Origin: an uncultured Methanomethylovorans sp.
GTDB lineage: Archaea > Halobacteriota > Methanosarcinia > Methanosarcinales > Methanosarcinaceae
Direction of reading: 5' to 3'
Length of the DNA stretch: 40,000 bases
NCBI RefSeq assembly: GCF_963678545.2
Contig: NZ_OY782867.2
Location: forward strand, 2,368,913-2,408,912
The translations under genes and the position numbers were made by a program. Positions 3,493-23,809 of the stretch are shown piece by piece. How positions within the stretch are numbered: the stretch's first letter is position 1; each line of letters begins with the position of its first letter. The notes under the pieces are model-generated. The model was not told where the DNA came from. It saw nothing but the letters and a program-made list of their open reading frames with translations, and made no database searches.

Positions 3493-3609
3493 AAGGAATT
3501 TACAGCAAAATAGAAATACACAGCAAACTGATGGTAAACTGAGTTTTGAATCCACTTCAATAAGAATATAATATATACAGCATCTCTGGAAAACTGTATA
3601 TGGTTGGCC

Positions 3610-4547: not shown

Positions 4548-4653
4548 AATTATCTTTTTGTATAGTGTTCTACATTAGTTATCTAGCTTGAAATATATAG
4601 TTAGAGGTTTTGAGCATACATACACAAAACCTCAATCGTTCTTAAGGAAACTT

Positions 4654-5865
4654 TCACTCATACCTCAAAGCGTCTACGGGTTTCATCTTTGATGCATTGT
4701 AAGCAGGGATTATACCTGATACTACACCTATTAAGACAGCTAAAGATATCCCTTCTACCGCTAGAGAAGGTGCAATTGACATACTAAGTCCTAGCAGCGG
4801 CCCCATTATGTATGTAAGAATCACACTTAATATTATGCCGATAAGTCCTCCTACAAAACCTACCATTCCTGAATTGAATACGAATATCATCAATATATCC
4901 TTATTCGTAGCTCCAATTGCTTTCATGGTACCGATTTCCTTTGTCTTTTCCATCACAGAAGTAAACATCGTATTAGCAATACCAACTGAACCTACTACTA
5001 AGGATACTCCAGCTATAGCTCCGAGGAAGAGGCTTATAGATGACAGCATCTCGGTTACAGTATCCGCCATTGATAATGAATCTGATACCGTAAAATCTCT
5101 GTCGTTCTCGTTCATTACATTTCTTGAGATCATGAGTTTAGTTTCAATTTCTTCTTTTGTTGCTTTTACATTATTTACATCGTTTACCTGCACAACAATT
5201 GAGTCATAAACTTCATTCTCTGCATCTGTTATTATACCAACAGCTGCATCTATAGGCATATAAACAGCATTATCATCTTCTCCGTCTTCAAGTATGCCTA
5301 CTATTCGAACGGATTTTCCATTAATTTTAACTATTCTATTCACACTGATCTGATTATCAAAAATTTCATGGGCAACACTATAACCTATGACTGCAACATT
5401 ATTGTCCGCTGGATCAAGCATCCTTCCAGATTCCAGATTATATGTGGACATATACTGCCATACCTGTGGATCAACACCGGTTATGGAGAGACTTGCAGAT
5501 TCACCCATAAAGGAAACAGTATTGTCACTTCCCGATATACGCCCATCGATATAGGAAATATTGCCTATCAGCTTAATAGCTCTTATATCCTTTTTAGTAA
5601 GTTCAGCATCTGTAAAGGAACCACCACCCATCCCCGGTGGTCCCATTACTGAAGACGCCTTGCTATATCCAGGTGTGATCGTAATTACGGTTAGGTCGAA
5701 TTCCGACATACGCTCTTTCATGTCTGCAGACATACTATCGCTAATAGAAAGTATAGTTACGACCGAAGCTATGCCTATCACTATTCCTATAATTGTGAGC
5801 CAGCTGCGGATCTTACTATGATACAGAATGCTTAAAGCCATCTTCAGATAGCCGCTGCTCTTCAT
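4654..5865 (-). CDS. ABC transporter permease, FtsX/MacB-like
   Basis: Architecture is an N-terminal TM helix, a large extracytoplasmic domain (MacB_PCD-like), and a C-terminal 3-TM FtsX-type region ending ...PAYNASKMKPVDALRYE. Confidence 0.85.
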   Translation of the reverse strand: MKSSGYLKMALSILYHSKIRSWLTIIGIVIGIASVVTILSISDSMSADMKERMSEFDLTVITITPGYSKASSVMGPPGMGGGSFTDAELTKKDIRAIKLIGNISYIDGRISGSDNTVSFMGESASLSITGVDPQVWQYMSTYNLESGRMLDPADNNVAVIGYSVAHEIFDNQISVNRIVKINGKSVRIVGILEDGEDDNAVYMPIDAAVGIITDAENEVYDSIVVQVNDVNNVKATKEEIETKLMISRNVMNENDRDFTVSDSLSMADTVTEMLSSISLFLGAIAGVSLVVGSVGIANTMFTSVMEKTKEIGTMKAIGATNKDILMIFVFNSGMVGFVGGLIGIILSVILTYIMGPLLGLSMSIAPSLAVEGISLAVLIGVVSGIIPAYNASKMKPVDALRYE

Positions 5866-5867
5866 TG

Positions 5868-7175
5868 TTAATTACCTTCTTTCTTTTTTCCATGTTGTAA
5901 AAGTGATCTCAGCTTTTGAACTGCAGCAGGATTTTCACCATGCTTTTTTCTGTAATACATGACATATCCTGCAAGAGCTACTGCTATCACAATGATGTAT
6001 ACGATTGAGCTTGAGCTTGCTGAATTATTTTGTAGATTAGAATTTGCTGAGGTTGTATTCCCTGAGACCTGAACTGATTTTTCTACTGTATTCCTCTGAC
6101 CTGCAGAGTCTGTGTATTCTATCAAAACATTTAGTTCATTGCTGGTTTCTGACGTATTTATGCTTGATTTCCCATTAGAAGTGCTTTGAGTATCTCCTTC
6201 CTTTGCTATTGCAAAAGAGGCAATTGTATAGTCGCCTTTTTCCAGATTACCTACAATTGAAGAAGAACTGCCTGATACAGTATAACCATCCTGTTCAGGG
6301 ATAGATACTTTGACTGAATAAGCCTCATTATTGCCTATATTAGCAACTGAGAAAGACATCTCTCCATCGGAATTATCTGAGAATGCAACATCGAAATCCG
6401 TCCCGCCTCCTACAAATAATCCAGCTTTCGTTGAAATTGTACTGATATCCGAGTTATAGTCCTCTACCTGAAGAGTAACATTCAATTGATAAAGACCAGG
6501 ATTGGCATTCACATCAGCCATTACTATATAACTAACAGTTACAGATTGATTGGCAGCAAGATAGCTAATGTATTTGGTATTCGATGAATATACAGGTAAA
6601 ATCGTTCCTGTGGAATCATCCCAGGATATCTGCATATTCTTCAAAGGTGAACTTCCGGTGTTTGTAACTACAAAATCAAGTTGCTCCTCGGTTGCAAAGT
6701 CTATATTGGATTTGCTAATTGTCACAATCTGAGCGTATTCCTTACCTCTTACTTCAATATTCAGTGTAGTTGTTTTAGTTGAACCACTTGAATCAGTACT
6801 AACAACGTCCAACTTATATGTGCCTGGTGGCACGTCAGCGTCTACCTTCAGCTTCAATTTTACTGTTGCAGCTTCATCGTCATCCTGTCTGGCATTGAGG
6901 TAAGGTATTGTTTTAGTCAATGATTCGCCATTTACCTGTGAGAATGGATATTCCGGTTGTGCAGTTAGGACGATGTTTTTAAGATTCTCATTTCCAAAGT
7001 TCTGTACACTAAGAGTAAGTTCAACTGTTTCACCTGGTCTTGCAGGGTTTGGAGTTTGGCTCATTATCGATACACTTACTCCCGAAGCATCCACAGAACT
7101 ACTTGCAGCAGCAACAGTTGAGATGCTGAATAACATCAAAAGTATGAATATAAACAGTTTTTTCATTCTAGTCAC
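5868..7175 (-). CDS. Secreted, repetitive beta-rich surface protein (COG1361/S-layer-domain-like) with a C-terminal TM anchor
   Basis: A signal peptide (MKKLFIFILLMLFSISTVAAA) is followed by repeated ...PG.Y.L.V... beta-sandwich-like modules, a Ser/Asn-rich linker and a C-terminal TM helix with a basic tail. It sits between the ABC ATPase and permease, as in the known archaeal operon arrangement. Confidence 0.7.
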   Translation of the reverse strand: MTRMKKLFIFILLMLFSISTVAAASSSVDASGVSVSIMSQTPNPARPGETVELTLSVQNFGNENLKNIVLTAQPEYPFSQVNGESLTKTIPYLNARQDDDEAATVKLKLKVDADVPPGTYKLDVVSTDSSGSTKTTTLNIEVRGKEYAQIVTISKSNIDFATEEQLDFVVTNTGSSPLKNMQISWDDSTGTILPVYSSNTKYISYLAANQSVTVSYIVMADVNANPGLYQLNVTLQVEDYNSDISTISTKAGLFVGGGTDFDVAFSDNSDGEMSFSVANIGNNEAYSVKVSIPEQDGYTVSGSSSSIVGNLEKGDYTIASFAIAKEGDTQSTSNGKSSINTSETSNELNVLIEYTDSAGQRNTVEKSVQVSGNTTSANSNLQNNSASSSSIVYIIVIAVALAGYVMYYRKKHGENPAAVQKLRSLLQHGKKKEGN

Positions 7176-7176
7176 C

Positions 7177-7914
7177 TTAATTGTTTTTTCTTTCCTCTAT
7201 TGATTCTACTACTCCATCCTTGATGTGAAAGACTCGTTCGGCGTATCTGACAAGACTCACATCGTGTGTTACAATGATAATCGTCTTTCCTTCTTTCCTA
7301 TGTAAGTCACTTAAGAAATCAAGAATGTATGTTCCTGTTTTGCTATCGAGGTTACCTGTGGGTTCATCAGCCAGTATAATCTCGGGATCAACAGCTAGGG
7401 ATCTAGCAATTGCAACTCTCTGTCTCTGGCCACCAGACAATTGTGATGGTAGATTACGCGCTTTCTGTTCCAAGCCTACCATTTCTAATAGTTTAGTGGC
7501 TTTCTCAGTAGCAAAAGAAGAATTCGCTTCCTGGAATTCTAAAGGAAGCATTACATTTTCGAGTGTGTTTAAAGTGGGTAGCAGGTTGAACTGCTGGAAA
7601 ATGAAACCTATCATTTTACCTCTAATGATCGCAAGTTCAGATTCACCAAGCTGTGAGATATCTTTTCCATTGAGAAAAACAGTGCCTTTACTTGGTATAT
7701 CAAGGCAGCCTAGCAAGTTCATCAAAGTACTTTTACCACTACCGCTTGGACCCAGTATGATCACAAACTCGCCTTTAGATATAGTTAGATCGATGCCCTT
7801 CAAAGCAGCGAATTCAGTTTCTCCCATCTGGTAGATCTTCCAAACATCCTCCAGTTTAAGGAGTGTAGAAGAATTAGTATTGTTATTCACATCTTCATCT
7901 AAATTATCAACCAT
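7177..7914 (-). CDS. ABC transporter ATP-binding protein (MacB/LolD-like)
   Basis: Motifs seen: Walker A GPSGSGKST, Q-loop FQQFNL, signature LSGGQRQRVAIAR, Walker B ILADEPTGNLD, and H-loop VTHD. Confidence 0.95.
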   Translation of the reverse strand: MVDNLDEDVNNNTNSSTLLKLEDVWKIYQMGETEFAALKGIDLTISKGEFVIILGPSGSGKSTLMNLLGCLDIPSKGTVFLNGKDISQLGESELAIIRGKMIGFIFQQFNLLPTLNTLENVMLPLEFQEANSSFATEKATKLLEMVGLEQKARNLPSQLSGGQRQRVAIARSLAVDPEIILADEPTGNLDSKTGTYILDFLSDLHRKEGKTIIIVTHDVSLVRYAERVFHIKDGVVESIEERKNN

Positions 7915-8797
7915 AAGGAAATCTCCTTATTTTAGATTCTGGAAGAAACAGATGGAGATGGAACCTGCTCTGTACTATTGAACCAGCTTTTTGCCATATT
8001 CCATACTAACAGATTGAATCGCCTTTTATCAAGGACAGTATAATTCTTTAACCTGTAACTTTTTTTCACAATATCTCTCCATTATATACCACTAATCTAC
8101 TTTTTAGTCAATCTCCTCAAAGGAGGCATCCACAGGAGAGTGAAATGCCTCCTATTCCCTCCTTTTGTGGTGCCACTCATAGGAGTTTGGGATGGCTGTG
8201 TTGGGTGGTACCTCACATCTGTTTTGATGAAAGGCAATCTATACATTGTTAAAATGATTATAAATAAAAAGTGGAGATTAGCTCCACATTGACATAATTA
8301 TGGGACTGTGGGAGTATTGAGTCAATAGATACCTTTTTTACTACTTGTGGTGATGCGAATATTTACAAATCGATATCCATAATTGGTCTTACAAGTAACT
8401 TATTTGTACTTTGAATCAATGAAAAATAGATTGATCTTGAACATTCACTTTTATTGCATAATTTACTGTTTTTTCTGTTTTCTCACATCAATAAGCAGTA
8501 TTATAATAATATCAAATTTAATAGGTGCTTTTTTCGTGTTAAATTAATTTCTGTTATATACGAATAATCATTGCATTTTAGTATCATACGAAACTAATAT
8601 ATACTTATGATGCTAGTAGGTAGTTATTAGTCTCCTATGGAACGATCTATCTACGTAGATATCAGCTTATTGAAAGTTATTTCGGAATACTGAGTGACAA
8701 ATAATAATATTGCACAAAATCATTTCAGTTTCATATGTTACTATCTATTTAATATACCCAATTTCAACAAAAACCAGTCAGATTCTGAAAGTGAAGG

Positions 8798-9262
8798 ATG
8801 AATATGGATGATGCAATAATGCTACTAGGTCCGATTGCTCATATCTATCGAAGCAATTTAGCCTATATGACAAAAGAACTCGAAACTTATCAAATTGGAA
8901 GCGGTCAATTTGAGTTTTTACTGGTTTTATATCACCAAGATGGTATCTCCCAAGAAGCCATTGCAAAACTCCTGAAAGTGAGCAAAGCAACAAGTGCTAG
9001 ATCAATCCAAAGTCTTGAACAAGAAGGTTATGTTTACAGGCAAAGGGATGAAAATGATCTTCGGGCTTACAAGGTTTATCTTACTGAAAAAGGTAAGGGA
9101 ATAAGGAATGTAATTTTGCAAAAACAAGCCTCTTTAATTAACATTCTGTTTTCGGATTTTTCGTATGAAGAAAAAGAAATATTTAAACTACTTATCCACA
9201 AAGCTGCTATTAAACTTTTTGAGCCTGGCTTCGAGCCTCCATCTGATAAGCGAGTGGGATGA
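8798..9262 (+). CDS. MarR-family transcriptional regulator
   Basis: LG.TQFEFLLVLY..DGISQEAIAKLLKVSKATSARSIQSLEQEGYVYRQRDENDLRAYKVYLTEKG is a typical MarR wHTH. It lies immediately upstream of an efflux pump. Confidence 0.85.
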   Translation: MNMDDAIMLLGPIAHIYRSNLAYMTKELETYQIGSGQFEFLLVLYHQDGISQEAIAKLLKVSKATSARSIQSLEQEGYVYRQRDENDLRAYKVYLTEKGKGIRNVILQKQASLINILFSDFSYEEKEIFKLLIHKAAIKLFEPGFEPPSDKRVG

Positions 9263-9292
9263 AATTAACTGAAAAACTGCAGAGATGACAAA

Positions 9293-10657
9293 ATGGATGA
9301 AAAAAGTGATTTTCTGGGTAAAGATAATGTAAGAAAGCTCCTGTTTAAGCTTTCAACTCCTATAATCATTGGAATGCTTGTGCAGGCGCTTTATAATGTC
9401 GTGGACACGTTTTTCGTGGGAATGGCTTATGGAGAAAATAGTGTCCAGGCAATAGGCGGGCTTTCAATAGCTTTTCCAGTCCAGATGATTATAATGGCAT
9501 TTGGAATTGTTCTTGGAACAGGGGGATCTTCCATAATCTCCCGGGCTCTTGGAGCACGAAATAATGAAAAAGCAGAAAGGGTTCTGGGAAACGTTTTTTC
9601 CCTTAGTTTACTTTTAAGTGTGCTTATAGCTGTTCCTTGTCTTCTTTACCTTGAACCTATTTTAAAGTTATTCGGGGCAACTGCTGGAATCCTGCCTTAT
9701 GCCAGAGATTATCTGAAGTATATAATTTTAGGAGGTATTTTCTTTGTCTTTGGGGTGGCTGTTCAGAATATTGTCAGATCTGAAGGGAACTCCCGCCTTG
9801 CAATGAATGCTATGCTTGTAGGAGGTGGCCTCAATATATTGCTTGATCCGATTTTCATGTTTGGTTTCGGAATGGGTGTTGAAGGAGCTGCAATTGCAAC
9901 CGTACTGTCACAAGCTGTAGGTTCGATCTGGCTCCTACTATATTATCTTAAAGGAAAAGGAACTATTCATTTCAAATCACAAAATTTAAAACCAGATCCT
10001 GAAATCATCAAGGAAATTGGAGCCATTGGTACTGGTTCTTTTATAATGGAATGTTCAAACAGTTTGATGATGATTGTAGTGTATAACATCCTCGCAATTT
10101 ATGGAGGAGACGTTGCAATTGCTGTCTTAGGTATAGTAATGAAGATTAATTCCTTTATCTTCCTGCCTCTTCTGGGTATGGGCTTTGGATTACAACCGAT
10201 TGTAGGGTTTAACTACGGGGCAAAGAAGTATGATAGAATAGTAGAAGCTGTAAAAATGGCTCTGGTGGTAGTAACAGCCTTTGGATTGTTTGGTTTACTC
10301 ATAATTTATATCTTCGCTGAAAAACTTCTTATTATTTTCAGTGCAGATCCAGCATATCTGGAAATGGGGAAGAATGCTTTAATAATCATGGTTCTGGGAA
10401 CGCCTTTGATTGGTTTGACCGTAGTTGCATCGATCTTTTTCCAGGCATTAGGGAGAGCCAAACCTGCTTTTATTCTTTCTATTAGCAGGCAGCTACTGTT
10501 CCTTATTCCCGCAGTTGTGCTGCTTCCCCGTTTTTATGGCCTGAATGGAGCTTGGGTGGCTTTTCCTGTCTCGGATCTCTTGGCATTTATGCTCTCCGGG
10601 TTTATGCTTTTCAGGGCATATAGGGTATTCGAGAAGAGTAAAAAGTCCATCGCGTGA
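9293..10657 (+). CDS. MATE-family multidrug efflux transporter
   Basis: 454 aa with about 12 TM segments. The N-terminal ...LLFKLSTPIIIGMLVQALYNVVDTFFVG and the repeated halves are typical of MATE/NorM proteins. Confidence 0.9.
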   Translation: MDEKSDFLGKDNVRKLLFKLSTPIIIGMLVQALYNVVDTFFVGMAYGENSVQAIGGLSIAFPVQMIIMAFGIVLGTGGSSIISRALGARNNEKAERVLGNVFSLSLLLSVLIAVPCLLYLEPILKLFGATAGILPYARDYLKYIILGGIFFVFGVAVQNIVRSEGNSRLAMNAMLVGGGLNILLDPIFMFGFGMGVEGAAIATVLSQAVGSIWLLLYYLKGKGTIHFKSQNLKPDPEIIKEIGAIGTGSFIMECSNSLMMIVVYNILAIYGGDVAIAVLGIVMKINSFIFLPLLGMGFGLQPIVGFNYGAKKYDRIVEAVKMALVVVTAFGLFGLLIIYIFAEKLLIIFSADPAYLEMGKNALIIMVLGTPLIGLTVVASIFFQALGRAKPAFILSISRQLLFLIPAVVLLPRFYGLNGAWVAFPVSDLLAFMLSGFMLFRAYRVFEKSKKSIA

Positions 10658-10766
10658 AATATAGGACCAAAACTATCCGAAATAATTTCCTTTTTTATTG
10701 TTGTTTTAATATGAAAGCATTTAGATTACATTTGATGGAAAAATATAAGAGGATTCTGATTATAAG

Positions 10767-11975
10767 CAACTACAAAGCAGAGCACAGGCTATCAAAATCC
10801 TGGTAAATGCTACCAGTTACGGAATATTCATTGAACTTATCCCAGAAGATAAGACCAGTGACATACAGGTTTATGGCCTTGATTCTTTCAATACTTCAGA
10901 AAACAGGTTTGAAAAACCAGGAAACTATTATCATCCTCTGCTTGCTGTAATGATAACAGCAGCTTCCAGGCTGTTCCTTGCTATGGCTGAAACCAAATTA
11001 AAGGAACAGGGTGGGATTCATGCTTACATGGATACAGATAGTATCTTTGTTCCTCCTGAATATGCCCAGGATATGATAGATTATTTCCAACCACTTAATC
11101 CCTATAGCCTTGATATTCCATTGCTGAAGGCTGAAAAAGTGGATATGTGGTTTTATGGTATTTCCTCAAAACGCTATGCTCTGTACACTTATGAAAAAGA
11201 ACAGACTAAATTTATAGAAGGGGAAAGGTCTTTCAAATTACATGGTTTAGGGCATCTTACTAATCCATTCCCTAAGAATATACAGGACTGGCAGGCCCAG
11301 GTATGGGAAGATATACTAAGATTACACTACAAAACCATAAGTTCTGTAGATATTGAGGCTAAGTATTCTGGGGTATATGCTATTTCGAAGCTTACTGTTT
11401 CTACCCCCAGGGTGTTGGCCAGGTTTAAGAAACTTAATGAAAACAAAACCTGGGATCAACAAATAAAACCCTTCAACTTTTACATCCTAGGGTTCCAAAC
11501 CATAAAAGAAAATGGTAAATCTGTGAAACCCTTAGCCCCTTTCTCTACTAATCCCCAGGAAATAGTGTATGAGCCTTTCATTGATTATGAAACAGGAGAG
11601 ATTAAGCAAGGATCACATTACTTCAAACCACTAAGTAAAATCATAATGCAATATGTAGATCATCCAGAGAGTAAATTTGATGGTGATATTGGTATTCTGG
11701 AAAGAAAACATGTGCATGCTGACGGTATTATCTACATTGGGAAGGAAGCGAACAATATTGATGAACAGGCTCTTGATGTTAAGAAGGCTCAAGAATTTGT
11801 GAATAAAGAAGAGATAATGCAAATGATACTCGATTTATCACAAAAAGAAGCCGAAGTAAGAGGAGTATCAAGGTGTGTGTTTCAGGGGATTAAGCAAAGG
11901 ATAAGGGAAACGGGGGATGTGAATTTAGATACTCCTGCTGTGAGGAGATTGATGGGTAAAATATCATCAGTTTAA
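10767..11975 (+). pseudogene. polB: Family-B DNA polymerase fragment (motif B KILVNATSYG and motif C YMDTDS to the C-terminus); lacks the exonuclease domain and motif A
   Basis: Colinear nucleotide and protein similarity to the intact polB starts near 10767 (compare 20865). About 80% of residues are identical by eye over the 341-aa tracked ORF. The frame remains open but has no N-terminal two-thirds. Confidence 0.9.
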
Positions 11976-12284
11976 TGTTAGAACTTTATCTCGAATAAAA
12001 GATAAAAAATCTTTTACTTCAATAGAAGATACTCGATAAAATTTGTCATCGCCATGTGCAGCCCATGTTCCAATTTCATAATTTGCTCGTAGGCTATTTT
12101 CTAGAGGTTTATGAATCAAACCATTTTGGCGAAGAGTGATTATAATCTGATCAAACCTTTGGTTTGTGTCTATATTATTTTTTTTTGCAAATTCTTTGAT
12201 AGTGGCTTATATAATAACTCTTCCATACATTACTGCTGCTAAATCCAATTTCTGACTTAAAAATTCAAAAGCCTGATCCAGCAT
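11967..12284 (-). pseudogene. HEPN/DUF4145-like small gene interrupted by an in-frame TAA
   Basis: The minus strand reads MLDQAFEFLSQKLDLAAVMYGRVII*ATIKEF...FDQIIITLRQNGLIHKPLENSLRANYEIGTWAAHGDDKFYRVSSIEVKDFL...LN*. It is absent from the ORF track because the part after the stop has no start codon. Confidence 0.45.
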
Positions 12285-12308
12285 ATCACTAAAAACTAAT
12301 AGTTCTCT

Positions 12309-12683
12309 TTAATAAAAAAGGTCATCAGTCAAACTATTTTCGAGGGCATATGAAACAGCTTCTAATATACCGATCTGTATTTCAACTTGAGTTTTGTAGT
12401 AAGAGGTAGTAGTAGTTGTAGATTCTGAATATTTTCGCTCGTATGTTTTAATGAATTTTTTATAATATTCAGAATTTTCTCCAAATCTTAAACGCAAAAT
12501 GTTTTCGGCACTTGTTTGAAATTTTGTAATACTCCTGTACGGGGAAAATTCAACCTTATAAATAGAATTGAATGATTTAGATATGACACCCTCTATATCA
12601 TTTCCTGGTGTCATAGTTCTGATTATTGATTTTCCTTCTAGAATAATTTGCGATAATCCATTAGCTATGATTTTATCATTCAT
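12309..12683 (-). CDS. Hypothetical protein (cargo of the casposon remnant)
   Basis: This is a 124-aa ORF on the same strand as its neighbours. I recognise no motif in it. Confidence 0.35.
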   Translation of the reverse strand: MNDKIIANGLSQIILEGKSIIRTMTPGNDIEGVISKSFNSIYKVEFSPYRSITKFQTSAENILRLRFGENSEYYKKFIKTYERKYSESTTTTTSYYKTQVEIQIGILEAVSYALENSLTDDLFY

Positions 12684-12797
12684 GTTTATCTGTTAATACA
12701 AGTTTTGCATATAAAAAGTAATTGAGTTTCAATTTAAAAATTATTTCAAGATTTACGTCTCACGACTTTATTATACAATATCTAATGAATATTTAAA

Positions 12798-13505
12798 TTA
12801 TATTTTACTGAGTTGAGATGTGAGAGTAATCACATCATCTAGAAGTTGTTTTGCTTTATCTTCATCCAGTTTTAGATTGTATGTTCCATGTGCCACTTGA
12901 TTTTTTAAATTTCGTACCTCTTCAATTAATGCTTTTTCGGTAGCATTTATTAGTTTTTGCTGTTCTGCAAACTTGATTAAACGAGAAAAAGATATAGATC
13001 TATTATTTTCAATTGAGTCTGTTGTTGCTAATTTAGCATATAACGATTTTTCAATTGCATTATTAAGTTCGATAAGCATATAATCATAATATCCGCTTTT
13101 ATATACTCTTTTTGCATTTAAAAGTGAAATGGATTCAGAGTCTCTTGCTCTTTCTATAGCATCTCGATATCTTTCCATGTATGCCTTTAAAGTAATCTTC
13201 ATTGGAATATAAGCAAAAAGTGTGGAAAGCAATGATGTTATTATTTGAATTGCTATTTCGCCCGTATATCCGTTAAAATTCGTACTTTCAATATATGCAA
13301 CAATACTAGAGGAAATATATAGTAATAGAATAACTATTGGAAAAACAAAAATTGCAGTGGTATATAGTAAATCTGCTATTAAACTTGTATGAGAGAATAT
13401 GGACATTTTGACAAGCTTAAATGAACAATATTTCATATTATCTATTGCATAGAAATAAACAGATAAGAATAAAATAAAACCCATAGTTAAAAAGAGGGTA
13501 TACAA
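12798..13505 (-). CDS. Membrane-anchored protein with a C-terminal HEPN/DUF4145-like domain; possibly N-terminally frameshifted
   Basis: About 3 N-terminal TM segments are followed by a C-terminal ...LIKFAEQQKLINATEKALIEEVRNLKNQVAHGTYNL..DEDKAKQLL. The R198-x7-H206 motif lies at nt 12888-12914. A 49-codon TM-like ORF (13487-13636, GTG start) overlaps its TTG start in another frame, which hints at a frameshift. Confidence 0.5.
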   Translation of the reverse strand: MYTLFLTMGFILFLSVYFYAIDNMKYCSFKLVKMSIFSHTSLIADLLYTTAIFVFPIVILLLYISSSIVAYIESTNFNGYTGEIAIQIITSLLSTLFAYIPMKITLKAYMERYRDAIERARDSESISLLNAKRVYKSGYYDYMLIELNNAIEKSLYAKLATTDSIENNRSISFSRLIKFAEQQKLINATEKALIEEVRNLKNQVAHGTYNLKLDEDKAKQLLDDVITLTSQLSKI

Positions 13506-13845
13506 AGAGGTACTATAGGAAAAAAGTGAAATCTTAATGGGTATAAATAATCTTTATAATTTGGGAGAGCAAAGAGCAAAGCTAAAAAGCTGATAATAAA
13601 AATTACTTTCTCATTAGATTTCTTATCATCATCCACACATTCCTGTAAAATATAAACTTATATATACTTTTCTAAAAATAGGTATATGTCTTTAAGGGAA
13701 CTTTTTTCTATTTAGTAGTGTTTTTTAATTATTGGAACATTTCTAAAAGATTATTTTAACTCAAGTAACAAAAAAGCATGTTTAAAACAAATTGTAGGAG
13801 TATTGTTTTTTCGATAGAGAAGGGAATACAGTTTGTATTAATAAG

Positions 13846-13878
13846 AAGAGTATTGTTTTTTCACGTTACCTATATCCC
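13846..13878. repeat. Right terminal inverted repeat of the decayed casposon
   Basis: The reverse complement gggatataggtaacgtgaaaaaacaatactctt matches the left TIR of the intact element at 28 of 33 positions. Confidence 0.85.
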
Positions 13879-13892
13879 TTAAAATTTATGCG
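13879..13892. repeat. Target-site duplication copy (ttaaaatttatgcg), shared junction between the two casposons
   Basis: It is identical at 14 of 14 positions to 23810-23823 and is flanked on both sides by outward-facing TIR ends (...tatatccc | TSD | gggatata...). Confidence 0.9.
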
Positions 13893-13925
13893 GGGATATA
13901 GGTAACTCTAAAAAACAGAACTCTT
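13893..13925. repeat. Left TIR of the intact casposon
   Basis: The sequence gggatataggtaactctaaaaaacagaactctt pairs with the reverse complement of 23777-23809. Confidence 0.9.
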
Positions 13926-14022
13926 CTAAATAATTAAGACTGATGGCCAAGTCAATTTACAGATACTTTTAAATAATTGTACTACTTTTTTTAAATAAAC
14001 GTTAATATATTGTAAGTATAAT

Positions 14023-14496
14023 ATGAGTCAAAAGGTAATTACACTAGAGGAACGAGTTAAACATATAGAAAAAGCTTTGTTGTCTTTTATTTTCTTTACC
14101 TTATCTTGGATTCCATTATCAGATACAAGTAGCACTCTCTCTTTATATGGTGGATATGGAATTATCTTTTTTTTAGCATTTTTTATTGTATTCTCTTCTT
14201 TAACTACTTATTATTCTTCCCTCTTAGCTTTTTCAGTATTTTCAGATACTCCAAATAAAGTTGCTAGAATTATTATAAAATATAAAGAAAAAGTTTCAAT
14301 GACATTTGTATTTTTCATAATAATTAGTGCTATAATAGTTCTAAAATATTTGAGTTTTGATTTGAAAGAAATTGCTGGTAGCATAGTTCTTGTAGGGCTT
14401 GCATCTGTTATCTATAATTTCAAAAAAATCTGTAGCCGAATCTGTGAGCGTATTTCAAAAATCGATGAATATGCAGAAAAGAAAAATCTCAAATAA
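14023..14496 (+). CDS. Small 4-TM membrane protein (left-arm cargo of the casposon)
   Basis: 157 aa with four hydrophobic segments and a charged C-terminal tail. I recognise no family. Confidence 0.45.
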   Translation: MSQKVITLEERVKHIEKALLSFIFFTLSWIPLSDTSSTLSLYGGYGIIFFLAFFIVFSSLTTYYSSLLAFSVFSDTPNKVARIIIKYKEKVSMTFVFFIIISAIIVLKYLSFDLKEIAGSIVLVGLASVIYNFKKICSRICERISKIDEYAEKKNLK

Positions 14497-14684
14497 GCAT
14501 TTTTAATTTAACAGCTGAATCATTAATTCTGGAAGTATTAACACATACTGATTCTTAATTTCCAAGCACTTAACTCTTATTTTTTTCCTATGAATTAAAC
14601 AAGCATTATTGGGGATTATCATACCATGAAAACTTTTCATAGAAAGTATTATCTTTGCTATTTAAAGGAAATTACAAAAACTTG

Positions 14685-15614
14685 TTACGTGAATATGGAA
14701 ATCGGAATTACTTGAATGGCAGGTTTTTTAATTTCTGTAACCATTTCGGGAATCTCAACCCCTTGTTCTTGTATGCCTTCAAGTATCTTGCAAAATTCAT
14801 CAATAAACTGTTTATTTAATAATCCTAAACTTGTTTTTCTAAGCAGATTTATAGAAACTGTTGACTCTAACGGTATAGTGCGTATTACTTTTCCAAAAAT
14901 TCTGTATTCTCCGTCGATTAATTCTTCCATATTTTGGTTGATAAAAAAATCGGATTTGGCAGACAAAACTGCACTTATCTTTGTTCCACCTACAATTTGG
15001 CCAATAATTTCTGTTGATTTTGAGTTGTTAAGTTCAGTTGATAGTCCTTTTATTTTGCTTAATAGAATTTCATTTTCATTTTTATTTTGACTTGTGTTTT
15101 CTTTTCTTTTTCCTTTGATTGATGGGTGTGTTTCCTCTTCTATAAGTGGTAAAGCCATTTCCATTAATTGTGTAATTCTTTCAATACTATCAATTAATGG
15201 GTTTCGAGTAAGAATTGCTTTAAATTCTACAAACATTCCACTTTCTAATTTATTAAAATCTTCAATTGATAATAATTCGTGTACTAAACCTTTTTCTTTT
15301 AAACATATTCTTAATTTAGAAAACAATGATGATGGCGTATGGATCTTTTTCTTTGATAATTCTGTTTGCTCATCTGTATCTCTTTCTTGATTTAAACTCC
15401 CACTAAATGAAACACCGAACAAACTCAATAAATTACTTAGTCCAATTGTTGATCCTGCTGAAGCACTTTTTCTCTCCGAATCTATAATTGATGTTTTGAT
15501 TGTAGTTACATCTGACAATCCATCTTCAATTATTGCAAGTAAATCAAAAACAATCTGTTGATTCAAATAAATAGGAATACATAGATCAAGTGAATCCTCA
15601 ATAAGTTTTTCCAC
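14685..15614 (-). CDS. Hypothetical 309-aa soluble protein (left-arm cargo of the casposon)
   Basis: A long uninterrupted ORF lying convergent with 14023-14496. No catalytic motif is recognisable by eye. It has a central Lys/Glu/Asn-rich linker (...KGKRKENTSQNKNENE...). Confidence 0.5.
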   Translation of the reverse strand: MEKLIEDSLDLCIPIYLNQQIVFDLLAIIEDGLSDVTTIKTSIIDSERKSASAGSTIGLSNLLSLFGVSFSGSLNQERDTDEQTELSKKKIHTPSSLFSKLRICLKEKGLVHELLSIEDFNKLESGMFVEFKAILTRNPLIDSIERITQLMEMALPLIEEETHPSIKGKRKENTSQNKNENEILLSKIKGLSTELNNSKSTEIIGQIVGGTKISAVLSAKSDFFINQNMEELIDGEYRIFGKVIRTIPLESTVSINLLRKTSLGLLNKQFIDEFCKILEGIQEQGVEIPEMVTEIKKPAIQVIPISIFT

Positions 15615-15792
15615 CTTCTTTTTCCTCCATTAGTACTGAAAAATCCCTTTCAGTTGCTGTGTTAATTTACGTTTCAATAGTATTATACATCAATACATAG
15701 AGATTTTTAACATTAATGGTTAAGAGTACACGATATTAAGTATAAATTATGACAGTTACTTATAATAAGTAAGTTTTGTTCGACAGAAAAAA

Positions 15793-16992
15793 CTACCCTC
15801 TCCATACCTCCAACCTCTCCCTTACATGAGCATTCAAAGTAAATGGCTTATCAGCCTTTGCATTTTGTTTCATATAATGCAATGTGCCTTTTGAGAATCC
15901 CATGTTCTTCCATTCAGTATAGGAAATATTCAGTATCTTTTGTCTAATATCATCTGAATCCTGTCTATCAATAGTAAATTCAGGCTTACTGAAATCTATA
16001 GCCTTCCTTTTCTCAACAAGGTATTGAACTAGCTCTCTAGTTTTCAACAACAAAGCATAATTCCAGGTTACTGAGTTCTTATGATACGGAACTTTCTTAT
16101 TCATCCAATTCTGGAACTCTTCAGTTACTTTCTTTGCACCTGAAGGTTTTAGCCTGAGGGAATAGCTTTCTGTCCTGATAAAATCCTTATCTTCCATTTT
16201 CTTAGATTCAATAAGGCTGATTACTGCAAGATCAACAAGGAATCTGAAAGGCTCTTGAAGATCATAGGCTAAACTGTTCTTACTTGGATTCATTTCGTGT
16301 AAGAAACCTACATGAGCATCCAAACCAACTGTATTAATGGCTCTCAAACATTCAGCTTCGAGTAAAGCATAACCATAATTGAGCATAACATTAACCATAT
16401 CACCTGCTGTTACTGGCCTTCTATACTGGTCTATCCTGGAACAGAAATCATATTTATCAGGAATAGCTTTTGAAAATTCATTCCAGTATTTCCAGGCAAC
16501 ACCACCCTCAATACCCATTATTTCCCTTATGGTTTTAGCCTTCTTTAACTTCTCATTATCCTCAGAGAAATCATAAGCAATCTCAGGATACCTTTGTTTT
16601 AGGTAATCCAGAACCACCTGGGATTTATCAAACTTGGCTTCAATGAATTTCCTTGCTATGCTGATTCTGGTTTCTTCATCCTCAAAAGCATGGTATTGAG
16701 CAAACTTTGTTTTTACATTGGTACTTTCAGGAGGAAGCATTGTTGTTAAGAGCTTACCATCCCAATTAAGGATAGAAACCTGTACATTGTGTTTCATTAA
16801 CCATTTAACAGCATCCAGAGTAAGGTTTCCATTCCTGCCATAGATAACAATGTTATCCAAATCCATTCTTCTTGGAGAGAATACATATTCTTGTGGTTCT
16901 TCAGTGGTTGAAGTTCTCCCGTCTTTGATATGGAGTTTTGCACTATTAACCCTCATATCAATTCCATGACCACTAAGAAGCAATAATTTCAT
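15793..16992 (-). CDS. cas1: Casposase (solo Cas1-family integrase with a C-terminal HTH)
   Basis: The Cas1 core is NVMLNYGYALLEAECLRAINTVGLDAHVGFLHEMNPSKNSLAYDLQEPFRFLVD, containing the catalytic E...H...E/D triad pattern. A C-terminal extension ...ILNISYTEWKNMGFSKGTLHYMKQ has an HTH pattern. I chose the start at MKLLLLSGHG (ATG 16992, GGGGTG 7 nt upstream) over the tracked 17016. No cas2 or CRISPR array is nearby. Confidence 0.9.
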   Translation of the reverse strand: MKLLLLSGHGIDMRVNSAKLHIKDGRTSTTEEPQEYVFSPRRMDLDNIVIYGRNGNLTLDAVKWLMKHNVQVSILNWDGKLLTTMLPPESTNVKTKFAQYHAFEDEETRISIARKFIEAKFDKSQVVLDYLKQRYPEIAYDFSEDNEKLKKAKTIREIMGIEGGVAWKYWNEFSKAIPDKYDFCSRIDQYRRPVTAGDMVNVMLNYGYALLEAECLRAINTVGLDAHVGFLHEMNPSKNSLAYDLQEPFRFLVDLAVISLIESKKMEDKDFIRTESYSLRLKPSGAKKVTEEFQNWMNKKVPYHKNSVTWNYALLLKTRELVQYLVEKRKAIDFSKPEFTIDRQDSDDIRQKILNISYTEWKNMGFSKGTLHYMKQNAKADKPFTLNAHVRERLEVWRG

Positions 16993-17047
16993 AATTAGCA
17001 CCCCTACTGTACACAAAAATTGTTTAATTTTACAATGCTGTTAAGCG

Positions 17048-17953
17048 TTAAAGCTTTTTTGGCTTTGTAGAAATGCTCATTTGAACAATATATGTAACCT
17101 TGACATACCTGTCAAGGTTATGCACTAATAGTTTCAATTTAACCTCTTTTGCTTGATTCCAATACTTTTTTGCCTTCACTTCTTCCCCGTATTTCCTTTT
17201 CAGAACAGAGAACATCGTTTCTACAAGATTTCTGCAATGGTACAATATTTCCTCAAACTCATCGATCATTTTTCTACGATACTTACCCTTGATCTTCTTC
17301 CTTTTCCTTTCTCTCAAAGGAATCATAGCTACTGCGTCTAGTTCTTCCCTTACTAGAGAATGTATAGCTTCAGAATCGTAACCTTTGTCCATAAGGTAAA
17401 ACTTTGATTGGCGATTTTTATGACATTGCCGTAGCAATGTCATCGCATGCTTTGCATCATGGATAGGCTTACCAGATATCTTAAAACCAGTGATAATAAA
17501 CTTCTTTGTATCAATGGAAATACTCACTTTTAGGAATGATCTACGTTTCTTTCCAGTCCTAAAAGAGTAATAGTAGCTACAGTGACCACTCGTAAATCCA
17601 CTCGAATCAATGGCAATTATCTCTATTTTTTCGCCATATGAATAGAACAGTTTTAGTGTTTGCTGTAACAACGATCTGAAAAGAATTGACCTAAGTCTAG
17701 TTATAAACTTGTGAAGTGTGGTATAATGTGGAACCTCTTTTAAACCAATTCTTAACTTCAAACTCTCCATTAATTCAACAAGTTCAACAATACTTCTGTA
17801 ATCTACATTAAGATATTCTTTTAACAAAATCAAGGTCAATAGCTGGTGTTGTGTATATTTCCTTTTCGAATATTTGCAACTATAGATCGGCAGGTGTGAT
17901 TTTCCTGATACAGCTAAAGCTGTATCAACAAACTTTAAGTACTTATTTGACAA
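17048..17953 (-). CDS. IS4/IS5-superfamily DDE transposase
   Basis: 301 aa with ...AIDSSGF...[12 protein letters not shown]...[19 protein letters not shown].... The ORF reads through the IR, and its stop lies in the flanking DNA. Confidence 0.85.
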
Positions 17954-18060
17954 AACACAATCATCCCCTTTGTGTTTCAGTGGAAAGTAATACTCAGGGG
18001 ATTTATTCTTTTTAAATTATTAGGTCAAAATAAAAGCAAAAGTAGCATTTCTACAGAGCC
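17061..18060 (-). mobile_element. IS5-family (ISH1-group-like) insertion sequence, 1000 bp, nested in the casposon
   Basis: The terminal IRs are ggctttgtagaaatgct (17061-17077) and agcatttctacagagcc (18044-18060), matching 16 of 17. The 8-bp direct repeat gctttttt occurs at 17053-17060 and 18061-18068. Confidence 0.85.
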
Positions 18061-18266
18061 GCTTTTTTGGTGATTATTATAAGTAAAGATTAACAGCAAA
18101 AGTTGGTTTAGTATATAAATCATCTCATTTAATAATGCCAATAGATACTGTTTTTTGAGATTACTTTCGCCGTGCTATACTGTCTCTATTTATATTAAAA
18201 CAGTTTATTTGCTATCTACTACGCCACCCGTAATGATAGCAACCCTGGCGTTGGAGATAGAAAAAC

Positions 18267-18416
18267 ATGAAACAAAAAACAGAATATGGACGTTTTGTCC
18301 TGACATTACGCCCTTTCATAAAGGGAAAATTGGAACAATTATCAGAAAAGTTTGGATGCTCTCAGGCTGAAGTAGTCAGAATAGCATTAGTGAAACTCTG
18401 GGAGGAAGAGAAATGA
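18267..18416 (+). CDS. Ribbon-helix-helix (CopG/Arc-like) small DNA-binding protein, 49 aa; not in the ORF track
   Basis: MKQKTEYGRFVLTLRPFIKGKLEQLSEKFGCSQAEVVRIALVKLWEEEK has a beta-strand followed by two helices, the RHH pattern. Its TGA overlaps the ATG of the next gene (ATGA at 18413-18416). Confidence 0.6.
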   Translation: MKQKTEYGRFVLTLRPFIKGKLEQLSEKFGCSQAEVVRIALVKLWEEEK

Positions 18417-19054
18417 GCAGACCTGTTTTCTCCAAAGACCACCGAACTTATGGTGAATGGCTCAAAGCTCAACCCAGGGATAGCAGATATGCAAAAGAGA
18501 TCATCAAGAAACATAACCTGTTTCCAGATAAGAGCCTGAATCAGCTTAGAAACCTCAGAATAGCTGATTATGATAACAGTAAGATGGCCTGGAAAAGCCT
18601 TACCTCTCAACAGAAAAGTGATAGGAAACGATCACTTGAAATTCTGAGAAATATGAGAAAGGGAGGAAATCTTACTGAGATAACTGAAAAATTAGGAGTA
18701 AACAGACAATTTGCACTCAAAAACCTGGGGAACTATCTCTACAAGGATAAAGGCAAATGGACTGTTACAGCTACAGATAAGATTGAAACTCAGATGCTAT
18801 TCTATAGCAGGGATAAAGGCCACATATCCATAGTGACTGCAAGCTCAAAAGACAGGTCATTGATCGGAAAATACATGGCTTATGTGAACAAAGCCCTGAA
18901 ACACAATGATCCTTCTGTACTTGATGAGTTCAGGAATCTCAAAATAATAGATGCTGAAGGAAAAGAGCATCATTTTGAAACCGATCTTGATAAACTGTAT
19001 GAGATAGAGGAAGCGCAGGAAGAACCAGAGTTCTTGGAGATATACCAGAGTTAA
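18413..19054 (+). CDS. Casposon-associated basic protein with a putative central HTH
   Basis: 213 aa. The segment ...RKRSLEILRNMRKGGNLTEITEKLGVNRQFALKNLG... is HTH-like. It lies in an operon with the HNH and polB genes. Confidence 0.5.
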   Translation: MSRPVFSKDHRTYGEWLKAQPRDSRYAKEIIKKHNLFPDKSLNQLRNLRIADYDNSKMAWKSLTSQQKSDRKRSLEILRNMRKGGNLTEITEKLGVNRQFALKNLGNYLYKDKGKWTVTATDKIETQMLFYSRDKGHISIVTASSKDRSLIGKYMAYVNKALKHNDPSVLDEFRNLKIIDAEGKEHHFETDLDKLYEIEEAQEEPEFLEIYQS

Positions 19055-19066
19055 GGAGTTGATGCT

Positions 19067-19396
19067 ATGGACAAAAACGAATATCAAAAAAGTATCAAGA
19101 AACAGCAGAGAGAAGGAAAAACAACTATTTGTTGTTCAACATGTGGAGTAACAGATTCTTCAATTATTGAAATGCATCATATCTTTGGTCGGAACAATTC
19201 TGAGAAAACAGTTCCTTTATGCAAGAATTGTCATGCTAAAATTACATATCAACAGAATAAGCTTGCACCCAAAATAAGATCTGTTAATGCATCCAGTGAG
19301 GAAAAGAGAAGATTCCTGTTTGTTTCTATGGGCGGCATTTTAAGGGTTATTTCAGACCAACTGCTTACATTTGGTTTTGAAGGTGATTTTTCATGA
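19067..19396 (+). CDS. HNH endonuclease
   Basis: CCSTCGV...EMHHIFGRNN...PLCKNCHAKI shows the CxxC...HH...N...CxxCH zinc-finger HNH signature. Its stop overlaps the polB start (ATGA). Confidence 0.8.
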   Translation: MDKNEYQKSIKKQQREGKTTICCSTCGVTDSSIIEMHHIFGRNNSEKTVPLCKNCHAKITYQQNKLAPKIRSVNASSEEKRRFLFVSMGGILRVISDQLLTFGFEGDFS

Positions 19397-22059
19397 GTAA
19401 GATTGCTGTTAGAGGATATACTCAGAAGGTAACGGGGCCTTCTATTAAGGCCCCTTTTAAGGCCCTAAAACACCCTTTAAGGTTTAGCAGGGTATTAGTT
19501 TTTGATACTGAAACCACCATTAATCATTATCAGAATCTTAAAATAGGGTACTTTAAGATTTATCAAAAAGGGTATATTCAGCATGAGGGTTTAGTTTATA
19601 CCCCTAATACCTTAACAGAAAAGGAAATTAAGGCCCTTCAGGATTATTCAAATAAGACTAATATTGCCCTTTATACTCATGATGAGTTCATTGATGATGT
19701 ATTTTATCCTGAAGTGTTTAAACTAAAAACCCTTTGTATAGGGTTTAATCTTCCCTTTGACATCAGCAGGATAGCAAAGGATACAGGAATATCCAGAGGC
19801 AAGAATAAAGGAGGGTTTACTTTTACCCTTTCAGAAAACAGGTTTAACCCTCCTGTTATTGTAAAAAAGCTAGGTAATGCTTACAGTTTCAAGTTTACCA
19901 CTACTAAAGAGAATAAAGGAAAAGAGTATTTCCAAGGGTATTTCCTTGATGCTCAAACTTTAGCTAAAGTGCTCTTACAATCAAACCATATTTCACTTGC
20001 AAAAGCAGGAGAGAAGCTCAATACTAAAAACAGAAAAATGAAAGATATAGAACATGGAAGGGTAACTAAGAGGTATATTGATTACTTGATCCAGGATGTA
20101 GCCACTACTTACGAAGTGTATCAGAAGTTAATCGAAGAGCTTGATTTATATCAAATAGATATCTCACCAACACAAATATACAGCGCCGCTTCACTTGGAA
20201 AACATACTTTAAAGCAATTAGGAATCAAGCCATTCAAAGAGCAAGTACCTGAGTTTCCCGATTCCTTGATCGGCAACATTATGACTGCTTATTATGGTGG
20301 TAGGTGTGAATGTAAAATTAGGAAAGTTCCAACAAAAGTTACTACTCTTGATTTTATCAGTATGTATCCTACTGTTACCATGCTACTTGATTTTTGGAAA
20401 TTTATTATTGCAGAGGATATTGAAACAAAAGAAGTAACTGAAGAAATTAAGGTTCTGCTAAATAACATAAACCTATCTTATCTGCAAAATAAGGACAACT
20501 GGAAAGACTTTATTGTTATGGTTAAGCTAAGACCTGATGAGGATATTTTACCCACCAGGATGAATTACAAAGGTGATGGATCGGCTTTCAATGTGGGTAT
20601 TAATTACCTTACCTCAAACAGTGAATTGTGGTATTCATTACCTGATGTTATAGCTTCAGTTATCTTAAATGGAAAAGTACCTGAGATTGTAGAAGCTGTA
20701 AGATTTATTCCTATAGGTATTCAGAAAGGATTAAGGAAAACTAAGGTTTTAGGAATTGATATTGATCCATCAAAGGATAATTTAATTCAGCTCTTAGTTG
20801 AGGAAAGGCAGAAGATAAAGCAAGGTTTGAAAAGCAAAAGCAGAGACGATCCAGAATATCAGCATTTACAAAGCAGAGCACAGGCTATAAAAATCCTGGT
20901 AAATGCTACCAGTTACGGAATATTCATTGAACTTATCCCAGAAGATAAGACCAGTGATATACAAGTTTTTGGCCTTGATTCTTTCAATACTTCAGAGAAC
21001 AGGTTTGAGAAACCAGGAAATTATTATCATCCTCTGCTTGCTGTAATGATAACAGCAGCTTCCAGGCTGTTCCTTGCTATGGCTGAAGCCAAATTAAAAG
21101 AACTGGGTGGGATTCATGCTTACATGGATACAGATAGTATCTTTGTTCCTCCTAAACATGCTCAGGATATAATAGATTATTTCCAACCCCTTAACCCCTA
21201 TAGCCTTGATATTCCATTACTCAAAGCTGAAAAAGTGGATGTGTGGTTTTATGGTATAGCCTCAAAACGCTATGCTCTGTATAATCTTAAGGATAATAAA
21301 ATTGAGTTTATGGAAGATGAGAGATCTTTCAAACTGCATGGATTAGGCCATCTTACAAATCCATTCCCAAAGGATATAGAAGATTGGCAGGCTCAGATAT
21401 GGGAAGATATACTAAGTTTACACTATGGGTACATTACAGAACTTGATATTGAAGATAAGTATTCTAATCTATATGCAATTTCAAGACTAACTGTTTCAAC
21501 CTCTAATGTATTAAGCAGATTCAAAAAGGTTAATCAGGGAAAAACCTGGGATCAGCAAATCAAACCATTCAACTTTTTCTTAGTAGGATTCCAGAGCATA
21601 GAAGAGAATGATAAGGCTGTAAAACCCTTATTACCTCACTCCAATAACCCTCAGAGTGTTGTTTATGAGCCTTTCATTGATTATGAAACAGGAGAGATAA
21701 AGCAAGGATCACATTACTTTAAACCATTAAGTAAGACCATTATGCAATATGTGGATCATCCAGAAAGCAAGTTTGATGGTGATATAGGTATTCTGGAAAG
21801 AAAGCATGTGTATGTTGATGGTGTAATCTACATAGGAAAGGAAGCAAATAATATTGATGAACAAGCTCTTGATGTTAAGAAGGCTCAGGAGTTTGTGAAT
21901 AAAGAAGATATCATGCAGGTGGTACTTGCTATACCACAAAAAGAAGCTGAAGCAAGAGGAGTTTCAAGGAGTGTGTTTCAGGGAATTAAGAAGAGGATAA
22001 GGGAAAGTGGGGATGTGAATTTGGATACTCCTGGGGTGAGGAGATTGATAAATAAGTAA
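19393..22059 (+). CDS. polB: Family-B DNA polymerase (casposon PolB)
   Basis: Motifs seen: Exo I VFDTETT, Exo II GFNLPFDISRI, Exo III YLIQDVATTYEVY, motif A TLDFISMYPT, motif B KILVNATSYGIF, motif C YMDTDSIF, and KRYALY. Confidence 0.95.
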   Translation: MSKIAVRGYTQKVTGPSIKAPFKALKHPLRFSRVLVFDTETTINHYQNLKIGYFKIYQKGYIQHEGLVYTPNTLTEKEIKALQDYSNKTNIALYTHDEFIDDVFYPEVFKLKTLCIGFNLPFDISRIAKDTGISRGKNKGGFTFTLSENRFNPPVIVKKLGNAYSFKFTTTKENKGKEYFQGYFLDAQTLAKVLLQSNHISLAKAGEKLNTKNRKMKDIEHGRVTKRYIDYLIQDVATTYEVYQKLIEELDLYQIDISPTQIYSAASLGKHTLKQLGIKPFKEQVPEFPDSLIGNIMTAYYGGRCECKIRKVPTKVTTLDFISMYPTVTMLLDFWKFIIAEDIETKEVTEEIKVLLNNINLSYLQNKDNWKDFIVMVKLRPDEDILPTRMNYKGDGSAFNVGINYLTSNSELWYSLPDVIASVILNGKVPEIVEAVRFIPIGIQKGLRKTKVLGIDIDPSKDNLIQLLVEERQKIKQGLKSKSRDDPEYQHLQSRAQAIKILVNATSYGIFIELIPEDKTSDIQVFGLDSFNTSENRFEKPGNYYHPLLAVMITAASRLFLAMAEAKLKELGGIHAYMDTDSIFVPPKHAQDIIDYFQPLNPYSLDIPLLKAEKVDVWFYGIASKRYALYNLKDNKIEFMEDERSFKLHGLGHLTNPFPKDIEDWQAQIWEDILSLHYGYITELDIEDKYSNLYAISRLTVSTSNVLSRFKKVNQGKTWDQQIKPFNFFLVGFQSIEENDKAVKPLLPHSNNPQSVVYEPFIDYETGEIKQGSHYFKPLSKTIMQYVDHPESKFDGDIGILERKHVYVDGVIYIGKEANNIDEQALDVKKAQEFVNKEDIMQVVLAIPQKEAEARGVSRSVFQGIKKRIRESGDVNLDTPGVRRLINK

Positions 22060-22186
22060 CATAAAAAAAGCCTTCTCTTTGAATGCTTATCTTAAATAAA
22101 CTCAATCTTTTACAACAATATTGATACTAACTATTATATATTATAAAACTTCTACTAATTATACAACTTAATAATGTGGGATTATT

Positions 22187-23776: not shown

Positions 23777-23809
23777 AACAGTTCTGTTTTTTCTCGTTAA
23801 CTATATCCC
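23777..23809. repeat. Right TIR of the intact casposon
   Basis: The reverse complement gggatatagttaacgagaaaaaacagaactgtt matches the left TIR at 28 of 33 positions. Confidence 0.9.

Follow-up and report, generated by a model that had tools for sequence, protein, structure and literature searches.

A complete and a truncated casposon separated by one shared target-site duplication at a tRNA-Leu gene of an uncultured Methanomethylovorans

Organization of the locus

We analyzed a 40,000-nt window of the genome of an uncultured Methanomethylovorans sp. (contig NZ_OY782867.2, positions 2,368,913 to 2,408,912), in which two casposons lie side by side at the 3' end of a tRNA-Leu(UAA) gene. This gene (23819-23904, minus strand; ARAGORN) is the only tRNA gene in the window and is the integration target. 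Next to it is a complete family-2 casposon of 9,917 bp (13893-23809; the inner element), which includes a 1-kb insertion sequence (IS) and is recognized by its gene set and its terminal inverted repeats (TIRs; 13893-13925 and 23777-23809). Further out lies a truncated casposon (10748-13878; the outer element), which retains a right TIR, the C-terminal half of PolB, and cargo. On its left, the outer element is joined to genes for a MarR regulator (8798-9262, plus strand; Pfam MarR, 6.9e-15) and a MATE efflux protein (MATE1; 9293-10657, plus strand; Pfam MatE, 2.4e-58).

The inner element has the features of a family-2 casposon, namely a Cas1 casposase with a C-terminal extension, PolB, TIRs, and a target-site duplication (TSD) of 14 bp with CGCA at a tRNA gene. 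The casposase (15793-17016, minus strand; Pfam Cas_Cas1, 1.3e-70) matches the M. mazei casposase of PDB entry 6OPM with an E value of 3.7e-198, aligning over residues 8-406 of 407, and its true start is probably the ATG at 16992. PolB is full length at 888 aa (19393-22059, plus strand), matches the protein-primed type (DNA_pol_B_2, PF03175, 5.7e-15), and carries motif B (KILVNATSYG) and motif C (YMDTDS). The HNH-like gene (19067-19396, plus strand) encodes 109 aa with CxxC...HH...CxxC motifs; its sole Pfam match is weak, HNH-type, and sub-threshold (RecA_dep_nuc, 2.5e-4), and homologues occupy the matching position in the related loci L009, L010, L012, and L014. The cargo includes a DUF6414 gene (14685-15614, minus strand; Pfam, 2.5e-35). 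All of the inner casposon's genes have open frames. The IS spans exactly 1,000 bp (17061-18060, minus strand) and has 22-nt TIRs, an 8-bp TSD (GCTTTTTT, at 17053-17060 and 18061-18068), and a DDE transposase open reading frame identified by Pfam (17048-17953, minus strand). Because it is inserted just upstream of cas1, at a distance of ~40-70 bp, the label "intact" needs qualifying for this copy.

The junction between the two elements

The stretch 13846-13925 reads ...gttacctatatccc / ttaaaatttatgcg / gggatataggtaac..., that is, right TIR, TSD, and left TIR with nothing between them, also given as ...GTTACCTATATCCC / TTAAAATTTATGCG / GGGATATAGGTAAC.... The right TIR of the truncated casposon (13846-13878) is identical to each of the other two TIRs at 28 of 33 positions, as those two are to one another. 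The middle TSD (13879-13892), which both elements share, matches the tRNA-proximal TSD (23810-23823) exactly. In the window, the 14-mer TTAAAATTTATGCG is present at exactly these two places and no others, and from base composition ~0.0015 further exact copies would be expected. The tRNA-proximal copy overlaps the 3' end of tRNA-Leu(UAA). From its acceptor-stem pairing, we read the mature tRNA as ending in CGCA at 23820-23823, so that the tRNA gene and the TSD have their last 4 bp in common (TGCG, or CGCA on the tRNA strand).

An inverted-repeat search recovered the two ends of the inner casposon (arms 13893-13925 and 23777-23809, 33 nt, 28/33 complementary) and also the junction itself, with 50-nt arms at 13829-13878 and 13893-13942 that are 80% complementary around a 14-nt gap. 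Folded as single-stranded DNA, the 114-nt junction reaches -24.2 kcal/mol compared with -6.5 +/- 2.0 in shuffled sequences (z = -8.8). The junction palindrome and the shared TSD are therefore real and beyond chance. PolB lies on the plus strand in both elements, so the two have the same orientation, with one shared TSD as their sole separator. A preliminary description of this DNA had reported the abutted TIR, TSD, and TIR, the palindrome, and the common TSD, and all three hold.

We also noted a 15-nt direct repeat (GAGTATTGTTTTTTC) inside the right TIR of the remnant (13848-13862) and again 50 bp further in (13798-13812). It may be a sub-terminal casposase-binding repeat or the vestige of another TIR.

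The PolB fragment of the outer element

The PolB fragment (10749-11975, plus strand) corresponds to residues ~485-888 and contains motifs B and C and the C-terminal extension. It begins just before motif B (KILVNATSYG), reaches the C-terminus, and is annotated in RefSeq as a hypothetical protein (WP_321418416.1). BLASTN aligned 10748-11953 to 20844-22049 at 85.1% nucleotide identity over 1,208 columns; beyond PolB, only the TIR and the TSD align between the remnant and the inner element. The protein identity to the intact PolB is 82%, close to the ~80% estimated by eye in the preliminary description. At this identity to a casposon PolB, it is unlikely that the fragment and the TIR at 13846-13878 belong to a class of element lacking Cas1.

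The overall synonymous divergence between the two PolB copies (dS) is 0.54, with a ratio of nonsynonymous to synonymous divergence (dN/dS) of 0.18. These values point to a separate lineage that diverged under purifying selection, as had been proposed earlier, and not to a recent duplication. The divergence is uneven along the gene, with dS of 0.14-0.19 in the first ~125 codons (10749-11120) and 0.8-1.6 in the middle (11124-11570), and such a mosaic suggests that casposon lineages recombined or underwent gene conversion with one another in the past. The stretch of highest similarity starts exactly at the truncation point.

The remaining parts of a casposon (cas1, the HNH gene, and the PolB N-terminus) were sought for the outer element throughout the 40 kb and not found, which agrees with the loss described earlier. 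Having neither a casposase nor a pair of TIRs, the outer element is a truncated derivative and not a functional member of the group. Genomes of Methanosarcina, Methanolobus, and Methanococcoides likewise contain many PolB C-terminal fragments of 250-550 aa that carry the annotation hypothetical protein. Unexpectedly, the intact PolB of the window, at 82% identity, was missing from that list of matches.

Decayed cargo in the outer element

The remnant retains cargo (11954-13845) with no similarity to that of the inner element. Both genes in it are, as judged by alignment to their homologues, pseudogenes. One is a 238-codon pseudogene with a DUF4145-like C-terminus (11967-12683, minus strand), colinear with homologues of 225-226 aa (P0280 and P0281) and interrupted by in-frame TAA codons at 12309-12311 and 12207-12209. 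In the alignment to P0281, the former falls on a Q and the latter on an E of the homologues. The 79 residues that follow the previously reported TAA match the C-terminal third of these ~225-aa proteins, and the DUF4145 match, itself sub-threshold, spans one of the two stops. The in-frame TAA in a gene at 11967-12284 is thus real, but the gene model is not: 11967-12284 and 12309-12683 are one gene with two TAA codons.

The second pseudogene (12798-13636, minus strand) would encode a membrane-anchored HEPN protein and has a weak HEPN Pfam match. Its full-length homologues (P0123-P0125) are 275-280 aa long, and their first ~45 residues have their counterpart in a second frame of the window (DDDKKSNEKVIFIISFLALLFALPNYKDYL), which places a 1-nt frameshift near 13526-13545 and bears out the frameshift suspected at the start of a gene at 12798-13505. 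The original start was probably the GTG at 13636. Homologues of this HEPN protein are located in defence-type islands or beside a Cas1 fragment; PADLOC gave marginal matches only for the cargo genes. The earlier statement that the remnant keeps its cargo genes and right TIR is accurate as to presence, but the cargo genes are pseudogenized.

The left breakpoint

On its left, the remnant stops at a single sharp junction (10746-10749). In the related loci L071 and L161, homology to the spacer between MATE1 and a second MATE gene (MATE2) ends at 10746, and homology to the intact PolB begins at 10748; the microhomology between the two sides is no more than 2-3 nt. From the MATE stop codon to the breakpoint is 91 bp, within the ~100 bp given in the preliminary description. 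The outer copy had also been called eroded, but there is no gradual erosion from the left. We ruled out an IS-mediated deletion, as no IS sequence is present at 10746/10748. We also rejected MarR-MATE as casposon cargo, since its left side lacks a TIR and every relative has the block as part of the chromosome.

The MarR-MATE block (~8555-10746) is 87.5% identical to L161 and L071, and in Methanomethylovorans relatives the gene order is photolyase, MarR, MATE1, MATE2, tRNA-Leu(UAG). Other genera have an ABC-transporter operon after MarR-MATE1, and in the window this operon is inverted and on the other side of MarR. A metagenome scan with MATE1 found a closest relative at 81%, and those loci show the MarR-MATE-ABC order of the other genera. 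Additionally, the source genome contains a second MATE1 copy (WP_321420928.1) that is 95% identical where aligned and has a 44-aa internal deletion. Given the different context in relatives and this second copy, the remnant is joined to a block that has itself been displaced or duplicated. The left half of the outer element may have been lost by deletion, or it may now lie at another place in the genome.

Related loci and a second tRNA-Leu site

A protein scan with the MBL-fold hydrolase encoded beside tRNA-Leu(UAA) (23989-24747) retrieved the orthologous locus from ~20 Methanosarcinaceae genomes. Most of the retrieved loci have casposon TIRs at a distance of 14 bp from the end of the tRNA gene. 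Occupancy varies from zero to one, two, or fragmentary elements among ~15 related genomes. Neither a TIR nor a casposon gene is present in L001 and L006, and only a TIR in L003 (which has a short flank) and L004. One apparently complete gene set was found in L010, L012, and L014, a TIR with Cas1 and no PolB match in L007, two elements in L009, a stub between two TSD copies in L002, and fragments only in L011, L015, L016, L018, and L019. The comparison of strains suggested earlier thus yields all three states of zero, one, and two casposons. These comparisons show that the tRNA-Leu(UAA) locus beside the hydrolase gene is a hot spot for casposons in Methanomethylovorans, Methanolobus, and Methanohalophilus.

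Two of these loci hold independent arrays. L009 reads TIR / GAAAACAAAGTGCG / TIR, and this 14-mer recurs at the tRNA gene; its casposon orientation relative to the tRNA gene is flipped compared with the window, and orientation varies among loci. L002, from a Methanomethylovorans metagenome-assembled genome (MAG), reads TIR / CATAAAAAAATGCG / 13-nt TIR stub / same TSD / tRNA at ~3754-3835. The stub looks like the footprint of a proximal casposon that was almost wholly deleted or excised. Outside the two TSDs of L002 lie a further TIR and a Cas1 fragment.

The preliminary description had also proposed defining the deletion from the original flank downstream of the tRNA gene in relatives. This failed: L001, L004, and L006 have left flanks that share nothing with each other or with the window, so no ancestral flank is conserved downstream of tRNA-Leu(UAA) from which the extent of any deletion could be defined.

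In Methanomethylovorans, the tRNA-Leu(UAG) gene just downstream of MATE2 is a second casposon site (L072, 13047-13180; L161, 13058-13170), where CGCA is followed by ~10 nt and then by the TIR GGGATGTAGGTAAT. At this site, L072 carries a TIR together with Cas1 fragments and a DUF6414 homologue, which lies beside the TIR and is 64% identical to that of the inner casposon. L161 has a TIR stub and then a fragment of the window's IS. In all, casposon remnants of three other genomes have fragments of this IS family next to them (L161, 13158-13559; L011, 8018-8450; L072, 15950-16053), one directly after the TIR stub at tRNA-Leu(UAG) and another against a Cas1 fragment. The IS may be carried along by casposons or contribute to their erosion.

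Proposed order of events

We consider it very likely that the window holds an array of two casposons at the 3' end of tRNA-Leu(UAA), built in the following order with the outer copy first. A family-2 casposon would have integrated at the tRNA end by a staggered 14-bp cut of its Cas1-type casposase, and the ensuing repair would have doubled the 14-bp site and restored the 3' end of the tRNA gene. Only the TSD copy adjoining the tRNA gene would then be a full target, and a second casposon of a different lineage would have entered there later, pushing the first element outward and setting the TIRs back to back around one TSD. A single illegitimate recombination would subsequently have removed the whole part of the outer element to the left of PolB codon ~485 and joined what was left to the MarR-MATE block, and the cargo genes of the outer element would have gained two nonsense mutations and one frameshift. 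The inner element would have stayed complete while gaining the IS just upstream of cas1.

We infer the order, with the tRNA-proximal copy as the newer, from published biochemistry of the M. mazei casposase (MetMaz1FA1A3-C2, PDB 6OPM). This enzyme integrates site-specifically into a target made of the TSD plus 30 bp of tRNA-Leu, and it makes poor use of the TSD alone or the TSD plus 15 bp (Hickman et al. 2020, PMC6977970). In the window, the sequence beside the middle TSD matches the tRNA side at 8 of 30 nt. Because only the tRNA-adjacent TSD keeps the target context, a second casposon is expected between the tRNA gene and the resident element, and the tRNA-proximal copy would then be the newer. 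The pseudogenized outer cargo and the open genes of the inner element agree with this order. Re-use of the regenerated tRNA target, as proposed earlier, is thus supported by the TSD, the casposase, and the target context.

Several observations weigh against parts of this scheme. The identity of the TSD copies is unable to order the two insertions. No third, distal TSD that would bound the array was found in the window with up to 2 mismatches allowed; there are only the two copies of the 14-mer, and the distal end is lost at 10746/10748. No further TIR was found in the 40 kb either, mismatches allowed, in line with the loss of the left TIR described earlier, and a scan of an orphan stretch at 8346-8554 likewise found neither a left TIR nor a third TSD. 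We therefore infer, and do not observe, that the outer element was once complete. Across 408 codons, the PolB fragment is free of stops, even though 5% of single-nucleotide changes would give one, and hence the truncation need not be ancient. In L002, it is the tRNA-proximal member that is more degraded, so the state of degradation is not a reliable clock. Furthermore, the MATE/PolB junction was not seen in any other assembly.

Alternative explanations

The strongest alternative concerns the fate of the left half. It may have been separated from the remnant by an inversion or translocation with breakpoints in PolB and in the MATE1-MATE2 spacer, close to the second casposon site at tRNA-Leu(UAG). 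The reciprocal junction, at which the PolB N-terminal part, cas1, and the left TIR are joined to MATE2, would then be at some other place in the 2.93-Mb chromosome. We give this somewhat less than an even chance. The closest relatives have MATE2 and tRNA-Leu(UAG) after MATE1, with casposon TIRs or remnants at that tRNA gene (L072 and L161). In the genome that contains both L001 and L161, the two loci are on different contigs (167,096 and 166,685 bp), far from their ends; a simple deletion from one locus to the other would have to be very large and take a tRNA gene with it. The window is also a mosaic with further synteny breaks at 3561, 8345, and ~8555. However, with a second MATE1 copy in the genome (WP_321420928.1), the block here may be a duplicate whose downstream loss is harmless, and another MAG appears to have the order ABC-MarR-MATE, as judged only from consecutive accessions (MGD9780208-210).

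A broader version, which we regard as speculative and rather unlikely, is that the UAA and UAG tRNA-Leu genes, beside the hydrolase gene and MATE2, respectively, act as paired landing sites between which casposon recombination rearranges the chromosome. If so, the MarR-MATE block beside the PolB fragment would be the scar of such a recombination between the two sites, and casposons, with the IS that recurs in their remnants, would be a driver of rearrangement in Methanosarcinaceae genomes.

It is improbable that the truncated copy is the younger one, having entered the distal TSD of a resident complete casposon and been truncated afterward. All TSD copies would be identical under either order, and a PolB fragment free of stop codons would suit a young copy. 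On the other hand, the M. mazei casposase needs ~30 bp of tRNA sequence beside the TSD, whereas the middle TSD is flanked by a TIR with the poor match given above, and the truncated copy carries three gene-disrupting cargo mutations while the other copy is open throughout.

An assembly mis-join through the repeated PolB at ~10.75 kb is highly improbable: the two copies are up to 94% identical over 300 bp at a distance of 10 kb and casposons are known to break assemblies (PMC4779613), but the junction sits at the edge of the repeat and not inside it with at most 3 nt shared, the fragment is diverged and not a collapsed copy, the right end of the remnant is a proper TIR/TSD junction, and the source is a single 2.93-Mb contig.

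Relation to known casposon arrays

Tandem family-2 casposons that share a TSD at tRNA-Leu, with one copy inactivated, were described as Met2HT1A3-C1 and -C2 in Methanosarcina sp. 2.H.T.1A.3, 2.H.T.1A.6, 2.H.T.1A.8, and 2.H.T.1A.15 (Krupovic et al. 2016, PMC4779613). That study read such tandems as repeated use of the same target, and it also reported two non-orthologous tRNA-Leu targets and solo-TIR remnants and drew an analogy to Tn7-like accumulation. The array in the window is a fresh instance of this published arrangement, and its variations fall within the described phenomenon. The Met2HT1A3-C1/C2 copies are close relatives of each other, and the inactive one retains its full length but has stops in PolB, whereas the copies in the window belong to distinct lineages (85% nucleotide identity in PolB), and the inactive one is cut at PolB codon ~485, joined to chromosomal DNA, pseudogenized in its cargo, and open in its PolB remnant. 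The host genus is Methanomethylovorans and not Methanosarcina, and the complete copy contains an IS.

The likeness to the M. mazei element extends to the 14-bp TSD that ends in the CGCA of tRNA-Leu and is followed by AT-rich sequence, to TIRs of ~31-33 bp, and to a casposase that aligns over its full length. Host genus and cargo genes differ. In vivo, an M. mazei mini-casposon entered a TSD of a resident casposon and produced a tandem (Gehlert et al. 2023, PMC10359463). Like the solo-TIRs of M. mazei (PMC4779613), the outer remnant is a product of casposon decay left at a target site, but unlike them it retains 3.1 kb with a PolB fragment and cargo. Following the analogy drawn in PMC4779613, the locus also resembles Tn7 attTn7 islands, where a conserved target by an essential gene is re-used and intact and decayed elements stand side by side. 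Unlike casposons, Tn7 has an unrelated transposase chemistry, and target immunity limits its tandems.

The window adds a clean, fully bounded case of polarized casposon stacking at a tRNA "leader-like" target, a layout that has been used in the argument that CRISPR arrays descend from casposon integration, and it extends the phenomenon to Methanomethylovorans. What is known of the mechanism is unchanged by it. The tRNA-Leu loci also offer natural material on casposon decay and on how frequently a target is re-used.

Other features of the window

The left part of the window is a mosaic. The ABC-transporter block (3561-8345) is 93% identical to an L164-type locus and is separated from the MarR-MATE block (from ~8555) by the orphan stretch of ~210 bp (8346-8554). 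A second, unrelated transposase of the IS4/IS5 type lies at 2291-3093, split into two open reading frames (DUF4096 and a DDE domain). It is probably either frameshifted or expressed by programmed frameshifting.

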